Below, piece after piece: positions 1,937-7,025 of a stretch of DNA of 60,845 nucleotides (positions are counted from its first letter, which is position 1; each line of letters opens with the position of its first letter). The notes below the pieces were generated by a model. That model did not search any database. It was not told where the DNA came from and worked only from the letters and a program-made list of their open reading frames with translations. The position numbers and the translations under genes were made by a program. This stretch comes from Elusimicrobiota bacterium. Lineage in GTDB: Bacteria; Elusimicrobiota; Elusimicrobia; Elusimicrobiales; UBA9959. The stretch is taken from contig JACQWV010000010.1 of the NCBI GenBank assembly GCA_016209085.1, positions 1 through 60,845 on the forward strand. Reading direction: 5' to 3'.

Positions 1937-2191
1937 TTACGGCACAACCTTGAAAACCTTATCGCCTGGGTGAACCTTGCCCGGGACTTTCATGCCAGCT
2001 ATTTGCCCTTTAACGGCTTCTGTCACATTTTTGTGGTCCACCTGCATGGACTCCACAGGCATCGTGATGTCCGTGACGTTCCCCTTGATATGAACGGTGT
2101 CGCCGACCTTCAGCGTCTCTGCCACTTCCACCAAGCCGACTCCCACGCGTCCGAAATAATGCGTTATTTTTCCCGCTTCTATTTCCGGCAT
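1937..2191 (-). CDS. Small translation-elongation-factor-domain-II-like protein
   Basis: 84 aa. KITHYFGRVGVGLVEV...VGDTVHIKG...ESMQVDHKNV matches the small EF-Tu-domain-2-like beta-barrel proteins. Confidence 0.6.
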   Translation of the reverse strand: MPEIEAGKITHYFGRVGVGLVEVAETLKVGDTVHIKGNVTDITMPVESMQVDHKNVTEAVKGQIAGMKVPGKVHPGDKVFKVVP

Positions 2192-2366: not shown

Positions 2367-4304
2367 TTACTTGCCGCTTCTTTTGCGGAGGGAATGGTCC
2401 AGAACTTTTTTACGCAGACGCAGGGATTTCGGCGTTGCCTCTACGAATTCATCCTCTTCAACGTATTCTATGGCCTGTTCCAGGCTGAACCGCCTCGGCG
2501 GCGTGAGGATGATGGACTCGTCGCAGGCGCTGGAGCGCATATTGGTCTGCTTTTTTTCCTTGCAGGGATTAACCACCAGGTCGTTGCCGCGGCAGTTCTC
2601 GCCGACTATCTGCCCGGCGTAAACTTTTTCGCCGGGTCCCACAAACATAGTTCCATGTTCCTGCAGGCTGTTAAGCGCGTAGGCCGCAGACTGCCCCGGC
2701 TCCTTGGCTATGAAAGCCCCGTTGCGTTTGGGCGGGGTGAACTTCCCCTCCGGCAGGTATCCGCCGAAACTGTAATTCATCAGGCCATTACCCTTTGTGA
2801 AAGCCATGAACTCGGATTTAAAGCCTATAAGCGCCCTGGCGGATATTACATATTCAAACCTGACTCTCTTGTCCTCTGACAGCCGCATATCCCTCATCTG
2901 CGCGCCGCGGCGCCCCAGAACCTCCATAACCGCGCCCTGGTATTCTGCCGGGGCATCCAGGACAAGGTGTTCCACCGGCTCCATGATAATGCCGTTCTCC
3001 GCGCGTGTTATCACGGTCATCTTGGAAACGCACAGTTCAAAGCCTTCGCGCCTCATAATTTCTATCAGTATTGCCAGATGCAGTTCCCCGCGGCCTGAGA
3101 CCTTGAACCCGCCCTTGCCCGCTATTTCCTCCACTTTAAGGCCCACATTGGACTCTGCTTCTAAAAGGAGACGGTCTCTGAGCTGCGCGGCAGTGACGAA
3201 CTTTCCGTCTCGGCCCGCGAACGGGCTGTCGCTTGCGTAAAATTCCATGGAAACAGTGGGTTTTTCTATCTCAAGCGTGTCCAAGAAAGCCGGCTCCTCG
3301 GAAGGCGAAAGCGTGTCCCCGGCTTCCACGCCTTCAAGCCCGGAAACCGCCACAATGTCGCCTGAGCGGGCTTTTTCAAGCTGGACCCGTTCAAGCCCCT
3401 TAAAACCCATGACCTGCATGACCTTGCGCGTGACCGGCGCCCGCTCCCGGTCGTCGGCATAGCCTCCGACACCTGTGGGTCGGGTGGCATAGCGCCCGAC
3501 ACTTGATGAGCCAGAGGCTCGTTGTTCCGCCGCAGTGCGGCTGTTCCGAGAGCCCATGGCAACCATCTGACCTGGAACTATCTTTCCCTGGAATATGCGC
3601 CCTATGCCGATGCGTCCGGTGTAAGAGCTGTAATCCAGCATGGTAATAAGCATGCGCAGCGGCTCTGCGTCCTTTTCAAACGGTCCGGGCACATGTTTTA
3701 TTATGGCGTCAAACAGCGGTTTAAGATCAGTCCCTTTCTTCGCCGTGTCCGTGGTAGCCCAGCCTTCCCTGCCGCACGCATAGATGACCGGAAAATCCAG
3801 CTGTTTGTCGTCCGCTCCAAGTTCCATGCACAGGTGAAAAACCTTATCAAGCGCGGCGTGCGGATCACAGTTCCGGCGGTCTATTTTGTTTATCACAACT
3901 ATGGGTTTGAGGCCAAGAGCCAGAGACTTTTTCAGCACAAAGCGGGTCTGCGGCATGGGCCCGTCCATCGCGTCCACCAGCAGCAATACGCCGTCAACCA
4001 TTCTCAGCACGCGCTCAACCTCGCTGCCGAAATCCGCGTGGCCGGGCGTGTCCACTATGTGTATGACTGTTCCGCCGTATTTCACGGAGGTGTTTTTTGA
4101 AAGTATGGTTATGCCGCGTTCGCGTTCCAGGTCAATGGAATCCATGATGCACTCACGCCCGGCGTCGTCCTTTGCCGAGATAGAGCCGGTCTGCCTCAGC
4201 ATGGCGTCCACCAGCGTAGTCTTGCCGTGGTCCACATGGGCTATGATAGCTATATTGCGCAGGTCGTCTCTTCTATTATTGCTGTTGTTTGGCGCGGCAG
4301 CCAT
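2367..4304 (-). CDS. typA: Translational GTPase TypA/BipA
   Basis: 645 aa. G1 motif [12 protein letters not shown] and DTPGHADF are present, with trGTPase architecture throughout. An extra segment of about 35 aa in domain II is encoded by the repeat at 3447-3552. Confidence 0.95.
3447..3552. repeat. In-frame short repeat, same family as 1174/1561; composite (internally duplicated) copy inside typA
   Basis: cggtcgtcggcatagcctccgacacctgtgg is followed by the degenerate second unit ggcatagcgcccgacacttg and by ...gctgttccg. typA reads it in a different frame (..TGVGGYADD..) from the frame used in the NMO gene (..QVSEAMPTT..). Confidence 0.8.
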
Positions 4305-4330
4305 AATTTTAAGAACTATTTTATCTATAC

Positions 4331-4416
4331 AAACGGATTTACACTCCCTCGTCCCACGAGCTTTTGAGTTCCCCGATTTCGTTCTGGACAGATTCCAGAA
4401 TTTGGCAGTTTTTGAC
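4331..4416. repeat. Degenerate duplicate of the hutH 3' end plus about 18 nt downstream (left direct repeat of a cassette)
   Basis: aacggattt...ccacgagcttttgagttccccgatttcgttctggacagattccagaatttggcagtttttgac aligns with 5469-5552 at roughly 85% identity by eye. Confidence 0.8.
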
Positions 4417-4530
4417 TCTGCCCCCTTTTTCTTATGGGTAAACCAAATTTTACCCCACCACTGAAACTGGAATATCGTCTTTTAAGAATAACTCAAGTTT
4501 CGTTTCGCCGCAAGCGTTGGTGTAATGTGT

Positions 4531-5331
4531 TCAAGCATGGCCAAAGCGGGCATGTCTTAAACTTTCAAGTTCTTTTAAAAGCGGCTGCCAGTAATGTTTG
4601 TCTTTTTTCCTTTCTATAAGTTCTTCTTTAAGAATCAATTTTTCAAGATTGTTCAGATTGTTTTTGAGAACAGACTTTAATAATGGCCGCGTTTTTACGC
4701 ATTCTACGGCAAATTTTCTATATTTTCTTGATAAGTCAATTAATGTTTGAGCAGTTCTGCATTCACAGAGCCACCATTTTATTTTATTAACATTTGGTCT
4801 GGCTGTAAGCAATATGTCATTTTCAATAAGTTTTTTTATCATTAACCAGTCTTTATCTCTTTGTGTTTTTTTGCTTTGAACGAGGTCTTCGACAGAAATA
4901 ACGTTCACAACCAGATCATTTCGGAGTTTAAGAACGAATTTTCTTTCCCATAGTTTCAAAAATTCGTCACAGCCTCGCATTTTTACCATAACATCTATGC
5001 GCAATCCTTCAATTCCTTTTGCAAAACAGCGGAAATGGCAGGCGTGACCTCTTTCAAGGTATTCTTTTTTTAGAGGCGGGAGATAAATGTTTTTTGCTTT
5101 AAGAAGTTTTAGAGCTTTTTTAAGACGGAATAAATTTTCTTTTTCACAAAGTATGACAAAATCAGAATCCCTGCTAAATTCTGCGGCGCCGTAAATTATG
5201 CAGGCTTGTCCGCCTATTAAAAGGTTTTTTACCCCGCATTTCTGGAAAATTGAAAGGACTTTGAGGATCGGGTTCCGGGTCAAGGCTGCCTCCAAAAGAC
5301 AGATATATTTGCCATAGTTTGGCTGATTCAA
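4531..5331 (-). CDS. Nucleotidyltransferase-fold protein (pol-beta superfamily; AbiEii/DUF6036-like)
   Basis: 266 aa. LLIGGQACIIYGAAEFSRDSDFVI fits the hG[GS]-x9-13-[DE]h[DE]h nucleotidyltransferase signature. Confidence 0.55.
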   Translation of the reverse strand: MNQPNYGKYICLLEAALTRNPILKVLSIFQKCGVKNLLIGGQACIIYGAAEFSRDSDFVILCEKENLFRLKKALKLLKAKNIYLPPLKKEYLERGHACHFRCFAKGIEGLRIDVMVKMRGCDEFLKLWERKFVLKLRNDLVVNVISVEDLVQSKKTQRDKDWLMIKKLIENDILLTARPNVNKIKWWLCECRTAQTLIDLSRKYRKFAVECVKTRPLLKSVLKNNLNNLEKLILKEELIERKKDKHYWQPLLKELESLRHARFGHA

Positions 5332-5392
5332 GCATTCTCTGTGCTGGCGTCAAATTGAGCCATTCTGTTTCCTCATTGACATATTTCCTCAT
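5174..5392 (-). CDS. Small hypothetical protein upstream of the nucleotidyltransferase gene, overlapping it
   Basis: 72-aa ORF. The N-terminal ~47 aa look protein-like (..LTPAQRMLESAKLWQIYLSFGGSLDPEPDPQSPF). The basic tail overlaps the nucleotidyltransferase N-terminus out of frame by 158 nt. Confidence 0.35.
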   Translation of the reverse strand: MRKYVNEETEWLNLTPAQRMLESAKLWQIYLSFGGSLDPEPDPQSPFNFPEMRGKKPFNRRTSLHNLRRRRI

Positions 5393-5468
5393 ATTTCAAA
5401 TTATACAAATTTACTTCGCTGCCCGAACAGGCGTCCGCAGTTCTGCGGGACGTTCGGGTAGTAGGGTT

Positions 5469-5552
5469 AACGGATTTGCTGTCCCCCTACCACGAGCTTT
5501 TGAGTTCTCCGATTTCGTTCCGGACAGCGTCCAGAATCTCGCAGTTTTTGAC
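5469..5552. repeat. Right direct repeat of the cassette (functional 3' end of hutH)
   Basis: Partner of 4331-4416. Confidence 0.8.
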
Positions 5553-7025
5553 CGCTTGTTTCATTGCATTGTGATCCGGAAACAAGGGTCTGTCTTCTTC
5601 CAAGTGTTTTACTGTTTTGCGGACAGCCGCGTGAGCCGCTTGCGTCCCTTTGCCATAAGTAAATTTTCTAAAATCCAGAGCCTGCGCCGCAGCTATAAAC
5701 TCTATTCCAAGCACTCCATAGGCATTGTCAAGAATTTGAGCTGTTTTCAAAGCGGCATTCATTCCCATGCTTACGAAATCCTCCTGGTCTGCCGCAGCCG
5801 GAATGGACTGGATGCAGGAAGGCGCGCTCAAAATCCGCTGTTCCACAATCATCATGTCGGCAGTATACTGGCTCAGCATCAATCCTGAAAACATCCCGGC
5901 TCCTTTGGTCAGAAAAGCAGGCAGACCCACGCTCAGAGCAGGATTTAAAAGGCGGTTCAGCCGGCGCTCGGAGAGAACGCTTACCATGGTCACGCCTGCT
6001 CCTGCCATGTCCAGAGGCATGCTTACAGGCGTGCCCTGGAAATTGGCTCCTGTCAGGACAGTATCGGTTTCCGGCAGGAAAATTGGATTGTCGGCCACTC
6101 CGTTAAGCTCTGTTTCAAACTGTTTGCGGGTATATGCCAGATGGTCCCTGAGAGCGCCTATGACCTGGGGCGTTGAGCGCATGGAATAGGCGTCCTGCAC
6201 CTTGACTTTCAGTTTTCCGGTAACAAGGTCGGAGCCTGCAATCACGGAGCGTATGTTTCCCGCAGATGTCATTGCTCCCCTGAATCCCCGCAGTTCGTGA
6301 AGTTTAGGTTCATAAGGCTTCATGTTGGCCATGAGGGCTTCAAGCGTCATTGCTGCCGCTATCTCGGCCTGCTTTACCCAGCGTTCAATATCATAAAGCT
6401 CAAGGCAGCCCATGCCCGTGATTAAATTGGAGCCGTTTATAGCGGCCAACCCGTCCCTTGCTTTAAGCCCCGGAATCTTAATTCCGGCTTTTTGCATGGC
6501 AATTTTGGACGGCATGCGTTTGCCTTTGTAAAAACATTCTCCCTCGCCCATGAGAGAAAGAGCCATCTGGCTCATGGGAGACAAATCTCCGCACGCGCCC
6601 ACGCTCCCTTTTTGGCAGGCAACCGGCGTGACTCCCTTGTTCAGCATGTCAAGGTAGGCGCGCGTTATTTCAAGCCTGCAGCCCGAATGTCCCTTTGCGT
6701 GCACGTTTATGCGGCTGAGCATTGCCGCCCTGACATGTTCAACCGGACAGGGCTCTCCTATGCCTGCTGCGTGATTATAAATCAGATAGCGCTGAAAATC
6801 CCTGACCTGTTTGTCGTTAAGCACCACTTCCGAGAATTCGCCTATGCCCGTGTTGACGCCGTACATTATTTCCCTGGCTTTTATTTTCTTTTCAAGCATT
6901 TCCCTGCATTTTTTAATGCGTTCAACAGCCTTGTGCGCGAGCTCTATTTTTTTTCCATACAGCGCTACATTAACCACATCTTCAATCGTAAGAGAACTGC
7001 CGTCTATTTTAATTGACATAATCAT
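5487..7025 (-). CDS. hutH: Histidine / aromatic amino acid ammonia-lyase (MIO-dependent family)
   Basis: 512 aa. YGVNTGIGEF and GSVGACGDLSPMS (MIO-forming tripeptide region) are present, and the length is typical of HAL. Confidence 0.85.
   Translation of the reverse strand: MIMSIKIDGSSLTIEDVVNVALYGKKIELAHKAVERIKKCREMLEKKIKAREIMYGVNTGIGEFSEVVLNDKQVRDFQRYLIYNHAAGIGEPCPVEHVRAAMLSRINVHAKGHSGCRLEITRAYLDMLNKGVTPVACQKGSVGACGDLSPMSQMALSLMGEGECFYKGKRMPSKIAMQKAGIKIPGLKARDGLAAINGSNLITGMGCLELYDIERWVKQAEIAAAMTLEALMANMKPYEPKLHELRGFRGAMTSAGNIRSVIAGSDLVTGKLKVKVQDAYSMRSTPQVIGALRDHLAYTRKQFETELNGVADNPIFLPETDTVLTGANFQGTPVSMPLDMAGAGVTMVSVLSERRLNRLLNPALSVGLPAFLTKGAGMFSGLMLSQYTADMMIVEQRILSAPSCIQSIPAAADQEDFVSMGMNAALKTAQILDNAYGVLGIEFIAAAQALDFRKFTYGKGTQAAHAAVRKTVKHLEEDRPLFPDHNAMKQAVKNCEILDAVRNEIGELKSSW

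Follow-up and report, generated by a model that had tools for sequence, protein, structure and literature searches.

How chromosomal toxin-antitoxin modules move when they are not part of a transposon, integron or prophage is poorly understood. Here we describe a two-gene cassette, most likely a toxin-antitoxin pair, which lies between hutH (histidine ammonia-lyase) and typA in a 60,845-nt stretch of an Elusimicrobiota genome (assembly GCA_016209085.1, contig JACQWV010000010.1, positions 1 to 60,845 of the forward strand; hereafter the window). Among described systems, the M. tuberculosis MenA1-MenT1 pair (Rv0078B-Rv0078A; PDB 8AN4, 8AN5, 8RR5) consists of a 68-residue helical antitoxin encoded directly upstream of MenT1, a minimal nucleotidyltransferase that adds cytidine monophosphate (CMP) to the 3' ends of tRNA (PMC10435456). 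The AbiEi/AbiEii system (DUF1814, PF08843) also combines a nucleotidyltransferase toxin with an upstream partner, AbiEi, which is a COG5340 winged-helix protein. As for the manner of insertion, phage 21 and e14 integrate into icd with an element-borne replacement 3' end of that gene, for which an integrase and a fixed target are needed. Insertion with long target duplication of restriction-modification gene complexes was reportedly described by Nobusato et al. in 2000 (Gene 259:99). The same mode is documented for restriction-modification systems by Furuta, Abe & Kobayashi (2010, NAR 38:2428, PMC2853133), and is recognised by a unique flanking direct repeat of more than 30 bp, a short insert, the absence of mobility genes and an empty site with one copy of the repeat (PMC2853133); the duplications range from >30 to ~420 bp, with no mobility genes (PMC2853133; PMC3874152). 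In the searchable literature, the term is applied to restriction-modification systems only.

Reading the window along its minus strand, we observed the order hutH, a 72-codon open reading frame (ORF), a nucleotidyltransferase-like ORF and typA/bipA, with two copies of the end of hutH, in the same orientation, bracketing the two middle ORFs. The insert between the copies (4417-5468; 1,052 nt) contains only these two ORFs, as the sequence-only reading of this DNA had noted; both are intact, and the G+C content is 31-37%, compared with 50-60% in hutH and typA. The segment is a compact, compositionally foreign two-gene cassette. We favour, with moderate confidence, the reading that a selfish, toxin-antitoxin-like cassette arrived here through insertion with long target duplication. 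The features are as follows.

2367..4304, minus strand: typA/bipA, 645 amino acids, on the far side of the insertion (GTP_EFTU, BipA_C and EFG_C domains).
4332..4416: distal repeat copy, a displaced, decaying hutH 3' end that has lost its stop (repeat search, alignment, BLAST).
4417..4530, minus strand: right arm of the insert, 114 nt, without a homologue in the related contig L022; fold no better than that of shuffled sequences.
4531..5283, minus strand: nucleotidyltransferase-fold gene, 250 amino acids plus stop, a putative MenT/AbiEii-like toxin (homologues, model, start-codon alignment).
5283..5297, minus strand: internal ribosome-binding site GGAGG (5289-5293) and TTG start (5281-5283), within the GGSLD codons of the small ORF.
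5174..5392, minus strand: small ORF, 72 amino acids, a putative antitoxin (25 database homologues, 17 invariant residues).
5393..5468, minus strand: left arm of the insert, 76 nt, with a hairpin at ~5422-5458 and a perfect TATAAT at 5400-5405.
5469..5552: proximal repeat copy, comprising the hutH 3' end, its stop and 18 nt (repeat search, alignment, BLAST).
5487..7025, minus strand: hutH, 512 amino acids, intact (PF00221 over its full length, E 1.5e-162; NF006871, 535 bits).

A direct repeat of ~85 nt at ~85% identity had been proposed from the sequence alone. A repeat search resolves it into a block of 87% identity over 70 nt and an adjoining one of 82% over 17 nt, with a 1-nt indel between them, and a gapped local alignment of the two copies spans 85 columns at 86% identity. 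This alignment scores 108, whereas shuffled flanks reach 19.3 ± 2.3 (z ~39); the similarity is thus significant when computed, as the proposal had required. Searching the whole 2.35-Mb assembly by BLAST returns two copies only, the second at E 1.3e-21, the next-best matches being chance matches of 14-16 nt. The proximal copy covers the 3'-terminal 63 coding nt of hutH, its TAG and a further 18 nt, and keeps the frame and stop of the gene; the distal copy is still in the hutH frame, has GAC in place of the TAG and a new TAA four codons further on, and lies 27 nt upstream of the typA ATG. The gene-internal end of the repeat opens with 12 identical nt. On the plus strand the shadow peptides can be read twice, exactly as had been stated. 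Because two independent Logan assemblies, made from further runs in the same groundwater study, match the hutH-cassette-typA arrangement base for base, a binning or assembly artefact is excluded. A 340-nt low-depth contig from run X3 shows 3 mismatches in 64 nt to the distal copy (window 4354-4417) and then diverges; it may derive from a related strain of the same aquifer, as the end of its hutH.

To place the repeat in a wider context, we used 86 cassette loci from species-representative genomes, six of them in relatives of the same order or family and 80, from many phyla, found by a genome scan. Upstream and downstream flanks were aligned with one another over up to 700 nt in a first pass and over 400 nt in a controlled test, in which a flanking direct repeat was called at a score of at least 40 and 232 same-length pseudo-cassettes, shifted elsewhere in the same loci, served as the control. 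Such repeats were found at 11 of 64 family loci (~17%; scores up to 277) and at 4 of 232 control positions (~2%; maximum 61). They are 26-219 nt long and 80-98% identical. Their distance to the start of the small ORF is 0-260 nt; on the other side the nucleotidyltransferase stop is 2-150 nt away, two of the weakest pairs excepted. Neither the sequence nor the length of the arms separating repeat from genes is conserved across loci. Flanking repeats as a universal trait of the cassette were rejected, as they are absent in the six nearest relatives and present at only ~17% of the 64 loci. As in the window, the pairs at L044 (62 nt, 95%) and L066 (95 nt, 85%) are unique in their own genomes. The duplicated pieces belong to housekeeping genes, being the first 20 codons of ruvB at L044, the 3' end of the convergent mnmG at L066 and the 3' end of hutH in the window. 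At L066, two tandem units of ~75 nt (2596-2745), negative in a tRNA scan, lie directly upstream of the duplicated target and occur on many contigs there and in relatives.

An occupied and an empty site could be compared for L044. Genome G108, which is ~92% identical to the L044 genome across the region, has the end of a pilin-like gene, 21 nt and the ruvB start, with the 62-nt target present once; in L044, the same flanks enclose two 62-nt copies, and between these lies an insert of 1,118 nt that comprises the small ORF and the nucleotidyltransferase with an arm on either side. Three positions distinguish the copies from one another, and at 7 they agree against G108. Since these seven derived states are common to both copies, resident DNA was duplicated and no foreign copy was brought in. 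This comparison runs counter to the earlier proposal of an integrative element that carried its own gene end and later lost its integrase. At L071, a clean empty site is unreadable amid dispersed repeats. At the mnmG site, genome G123 (90%) has the same insertion as L066. G125 (80%) was rejected as the empty counterpart of L066: the target is there once, but a RelE/ParE-like pair occupies the place (toxin gene plus small upstream partner; L203, G125:C241, reverse strand, first ~580 nt). This suggests that the mnmG end is a spot where addiction modules interchange, and it may be a hot spot at which different toxin-antitoxin modules replace one another.

Set beside the marks by which insertion with long target duplication is recognised in restriction-modification systems, the window shows three of four: its repeat is longer than 30 bp (85 nt, 86%), the repeat is not dispersed (two copies in the assembly), and the insert is a complete unit of less than 20 kb without mobility genes (1,052 nt, two intact genes). 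The fourth, an empty site, is seen for L044 versus G108 and can be carried over to the window only by analogy. Following this reading, a 1,052-nt foreign segment (4417-5468) would have inserted at the hutH/typA junction and duplicated 85 bp of resident DNA, namely the last 66 nt of hutH including its stop and an 18-nt spacer; as a result of the duplication, hutH keeps an intact 3' end and typA keeps its original upstream sequence. We infer that hutH and typA were adjacent before the insertion, and likewise its biochemical route. Like the restriction-modification insertions, the cassette would be a small, selfish unit of the post-segregational-killing type, without transposase or integrase and flanked by direct repeats of resident DNA that vary from tens to hundreds of bp and often include the end of a neighbouring gene. 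It differs in its cargo, a nucleotidyltransferase/small-protein pair, and in its hosts, which are uncultivated groundwater phyla rather than naturally competent pathogens. The shared footprint would point to a common, recombinase-free entry route for addiction-type modules. We stress that the stronger version of this idea, in which the pair is an autonomous selfish element spreading without a recombinase and host repair provides a general route for post-segregational-killing modules that leaves 30-100-bp duplications, seems to us unlikely; in that version, staggered breaks might be filled in around captured linear DNA, and the duplication would be selected for keeping the flanking housekeeping genes and signals intact.

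A number of observations weigh against the insertion reading. The repeats at L043 and L090 had to be rejected as clean target duplications, as they consist of multi-copy paralogous sequence; those at L096 and L102 include short dispersed elements; and the L071 pair (60 nt, 98%), for which a further weak match of 25 nt exists, lies in a region that is a mosaic of dispersed repeats. The true excess of flanking repeats is therefore below 17%, the control hits having been counted without the same copy-number check. An empty hutH-typA site, the uninterrupted junction for which a comparison with relatives had been suggested, was absent from the 40 nearest genomes, all of them from other genera, where typA and hutH lie on different contigs throughout. 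Similarly, the 80 closest metagenomic hutH loci (up to 82% amino acid identity) have no typA or cassette within 3.5 kb, and no excision joint was found among the contigs that Logan provides for four groundwater runs, a kind of data that cannot prove absence. The only other locus with the cassette at hutH is L022, a Logan contig that holds the closest nucleotidyltransferase homologue (82% nucleotide identity over 1,054 nt); L022, the closest relative, is without the distal hutH copy and has a different 266-codon ORF after the nucleotidyltransferase. The final 63 nt of hutH in the proximal, distal and L022 versions show 6, 5 and 6 pairwise differences with no informative shared changes, so that the three ends form an unresolved star and the two window copies cannot be shown to be sisters. 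The occurrence of the same arrangement without the repeat had been named as a finding that would speak against an insertion. L022 provides this in part; what it does is to date the insertion to before the split of these species rather than remove it, which makes the event roughly the age of that split.

The cassette also occurs at unrelated sites in other genomes, as the sequence-only reading had thought worth searching for. None of the 86 homologous loci is beside hutH, and only L022 shares this position. The six relatives have the cassette in six different contexts, for example between sugar-nucleotide genes or after polA, and the targets differ between loci (hutH, ruvB, mnmG, polA-adjacent). 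The distribution of the family is patchy, single-copy and beside housekeeping genes. The family occupies unrelated sites and there is no evidence of a preference for hutH, so the earlier claim that the hutH 3' end is its target is not supported. The notion of a mobile or formerly mobile cassette survives in a modified form, supported by the scattered sites and the flanking repeats, and loses both the hutH targeting and the integrase-borne gene end. Overall, this is a toxin-antitoxin-like cassette, formerly or currently mobile, that is not specific to hutH and was probably not brought in by an integrase. The locus and its relatives provide a repeatable footprint: a ~1-kb module beside core genes (hutH/typA, ruvB, mnmG), with a long target duplication that leaves the genes whole. 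What is new here is that such duplications recur, as tested against a control, that an empty site is known for one family member, and that the footprint can be tied to published work on restriction-modification systems.

We now turn to the two genes. The small ORF overlaps the nucleotidyltransferase gene in the +1 frame, by 110 nt in the window and by 50-56 nt in most loci, with values of 110-158 nt also cited overall. The same +1 relation is found in the six relatives and in 79 of 79 loci with upstream sequence among the 80 of the genome scan. Over these 80 loci, the codon aligned to residue 1 of the nucleotidyltransferase is TTG in 68, ATG in nine and GTG in three, and a GGAGG-like sequence lies 5-6 nt upstream of it. 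The small ORFs mostly end 1-5 codons past the invariant ...DPEPDPQSPF(Y)F / SPFYF. The universal start codon, the GGAGG at the junction and the early stops of the small ORFs together indicate two genes and not one broken gene. The nucleotidyltransferase had been described as a protein of 266 amino acids, a version that runs from the first TTG (4531-5331); its start should be read as TTG 5283, giving 250 amino acids, and gene callers agree. As this start is embedded in the small gene, the expression of both is coupled, and the nucleotidyltransferase is probably made in lower amounts than the small protein. From the conservation across loci, the small ORF appears to be an obligate upstream partner of the nucleotidyltransferase. 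Just past the nucleotidyltransferase start, ~25 nt (GAACCCGATCCTCAAAGTCCTTT; window 5243-5283, L023-L102) are near-invariant at all codon positions in many phyla, which is largely explained by dual coding; an added role at the RNA level, such as translational control, is possible. An Rfam scan of 3800-6000 gave no match.

The nucleotidyltransferase belongs to a large family: at E up to 1e-3 it has more than 3,800 homologues, every one annotated as 'hypothetical', which come from Elusimicrobiota, Omnitrophota, Planctomycetota, the candidate phyla radiation (CPR) and other phyla. Invariant in the family are G24-G25, D41, K138-K139 and D156, while D39, D97, D143 and D145 occur in at least 90% of its members, and the window protein holds all 45 family-invariant residues. 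As judged from the alignment, the conserved residues fit the signature of pol-beta nucleotidyltransferases (hG[GS], DxD and a downstream K/D motif). An AlphaFold model built from 57 homologues has a predicted local distance difference test score (pLDDT) of 94. With this model, Foldseek against the PDB places M. tuberculosis MenT1 first (E 4e-5), followed by JHP933, LnuA, TM1012 and ANT(2''). The best full-length match among clusters of the AlphaFold Database (AFDB) carries the automatic annotation 'AbiEii/AbiGii toxin family' (template modelling (TM) scores 0.81/0.79, E 1.5e-14, 26% identity). The predicted fold thus appears closest to the MenT1 and AbiEii toxins, which bears out the nucleotidyltransferase fold of the earlier description. 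The model has a helical C-terminal extension of ~90 residues that is without a counterpart in MenT1. In addition to several weaker nucleotidyltransferase-like ORFs, the window's genome contains one distant paralogue (G000:C138:28302-29039; 31% identity, E 5e-20).

The small protein has the conserved core EWLxLTPAQRxxExxKLWxxYLxxGGSLDPEPDPQSPF, and is modelled as two helices (7-12 and 16-32) followed by a disordered tail. From these models and from the gene arrangement, we hypothesize that the cassette is most likely a MenT/AbiEii-like toxin-antitoxin pair, for addiction or defence, with toxicity, antitoxin role and tRNA target all proposed by likeness. A protein of ~60-70 amino acids with two helices and a disordered, proline-rich tail is encoded first, and the pol-beta-type enzyme of 250 amino acids is translated from the GGAGG and TTG inside the small gene. 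In the way that MenA1 acts on MenT1, the small protein would keep the nucleotidyltransferase inactive, and the free enzyme would add nucleotides to tRNA 3' ends, so that translation is blocked. Both this pair and MenA1-MenT1 have the gene of a short helical protein directly upstream of the nucleotidyltransferase, and the window enzyme keeps the GG...DxD and K...D active-site pattern of MenT1, its top structural match in the PDB. However, sequence identity to MenT1 is ~16%, with no match at the sequence level; the window enzyme is longer, with an additional bundle of helices at its C-terminus; the small protein shows no sequence relationship to MenA1, and its 3' third is dual-coded with the N-terminus of the putative toxin; and the window toxin would begin at an internal TTG, the pair being known from sequence and models. 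Likewise, an upstream partner and the name of the best structural match recall AbiEi/AbiEii, but PF08843 does not match the window enzyme even at E up to 1, and the partner has a conserved core of ~45 amino acids in place of a winged-helix protein. The family may constitute a new branch of MenT/AbiEii-type nucleotidyltransferase toxins, controlled by an internal weak start codon. As it is large, unannotated and recognisable by its invariant dual-coded junction, a systematic survey of occupied and empty sites is possible. In the relative G026, ~2 kb from its cassette, an unrelated 72-codon ORF and a nucleotidyltransferase-like ORF of 176 codons lie in the same orientation (L014, 4536-5257, minus strand); this may be another toxin-antitoxin-like module.

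Two other histories could have placed a second hutH end at the far side of the cassette. In one, homology-facilitated illegitimate recombination, the cassette was imported from a relative that already carried it behind hutH, through a homologous crossover inside hutH and an illegitimate join in the resident hutH region, 85 nt short of its end; the proximal copy would then stem from the donor, and the distal copy would be the end of the resident gene. L022 is indeed a related species with the cassette at the same position, the 6, 5 and 6 differences among the three hutH ends are what a donor/recipient pair would give, and the X3 contig could be the hutH end of a related strain. This scenario leaves the first arrival of the cassette behind hutH unexplained, as well as L044, where both copies have the derived states of the resident lineage, and no donor-like mosaic boundary is visible inside hutH on a check without depth; we regard it as unlikely. 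In the other, the hutH 3' end was the site-specific target of a larger island or prophage that brought its own hutH end, with the repeats as attL and attR, and all but the addictive toxin-antitoxin module was later deleted. Such an element would resemble phage 21/e14 in icd, where the gene likewise has its 3' end in two places, on the functional gene itself and, displaced, on the opposite side of the insert. That toxin-antitoxin modules resist loss, that the variable arms resemble deletion remnants, that the 12 identical nt at the gene-internal end of the repeat could be a crossover core, and that L022 has other DNA after the nucleotidyltransferase would all be in keeping with it. Unlike phage 21/e14, however, the cassette has many targets, a different one at every locus, and at L044 the second copy is resident DNA and not element-borne; the right arm is just 2-7 nt in several loci; and no integrase or other recombinase is present within ~4 kb of the window cassette, as the sequence-only reading had remarked, or among the ORFs flanking five repeat-bearing loci (L044, L066, L071, L096, L102; Pfam scan of nine neighbouring ORFs). 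A tRNA or integron-type target was also considered and rejected, since no tRNA gene is found in eight cassette loci and the window repeats are hutH coding sequence. Given the absence of a recombinase, the varied, non-tRNA targets and the resident duplication at L044, the integrase-borne model becomes less likely, and we give it little credence.

If insertion with target duplication is accepted, the pair may nevertheless be something other than toxin and antitoxin, such as a small-molecule-modifying or defence enzyme (LnuA/ANT-like or other) with a regulator or chaperone. Weighing in this direction, and against the toxin-antitoxin reading, Pfam, NCBIfam and PADLOC at E up to 1 gave no family match, PF08843/DUF1814 (AbiEii) included, so that the hidden Markov model (HMM) searches called for earlier leave the likeness to toxins to structure. 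A PDB sequence search to E 10 found no MenT/AbiEii or other nucleotidyltransferase chain, the best match being a chance one to a MAP kinase (E 0.026). Moreover, VIA-align Z scores of 11.8 for MenT1, 11.6 for LnuA, 11.5 for TM1012 and 10.2 for ANT(2'') indicate that fold scores cannot tell MenT1 from the other three, and the helical C-terminal extension is foreign to MenT1. Against such an enzyme stand the obligate, translationally coupled small partner at all 79 loci, the full-length structural match named (automatically) as an AbiEii/AbiGii toxin, and the patchy, single-copy occurrence beside housekeeping genes, with a RelE/ParE-like pair at the same mnmG site in a relative; we consider this alternative rather unlikely, while allowing it some weight. 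A single gene split by a frameshift, either a pseudogene or one making a fused protein by programmed +1 frameshifting, would account for the long out-of-frame overlap, and one database protein (P0131) does read through in frame. Yet the frame relation and overlap are kept across phyla, position 1 is always TTG, ATG or GTG after GGAGG, with start-codon switches made at the cost of the small ORF's own residue, and the small ORFs mostly stop soon after SPFYF. One frameshifted gene is thereby largely refuted, and we regard it as very improbable. The toxin-antitoxin pair remains the interpretation that we prefer.

For annotation, the distal hutH fragment is not a gene, the small ORF is to be called, and the nucleotidyltransferase is to start at TTG 5283. 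In the left arm, the hairpin has a predicted energy of -19.8 kcal/mol (z -2.5), and the TATAAT lies 7 nt ahead of the small-ORF ATG, the stretch from TATAAT to ATG being common to L022; we infer a putative promoter here, where a simple sigma-70 scan made no call. The C-terminus of HutH agrees with the hutH ends of relatives, and the wider neighbourhood comprises hutH, typA, a PMT-like glycosyltransferase, an NMO-family gene and an MBL hydrolase. An 84-codon ORF just downstream of typA (1937-2191, minus strand) matches EF-Tu domain 2 (PF03144, E 2e-6, under the curated cut-off) and is not copied from typA's own domain II, which itself contains a low-complexity insert (residues ~250-292, window ~3430-3560). 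In hutH, positions 6588-6596 (GSVGACGDLSPMS) encode Ala-Cys-Gly as the tripeptide that forms the 4-methylideneimidazole-5-one (MIO) group, where Ala-Ser-Gly is usual.

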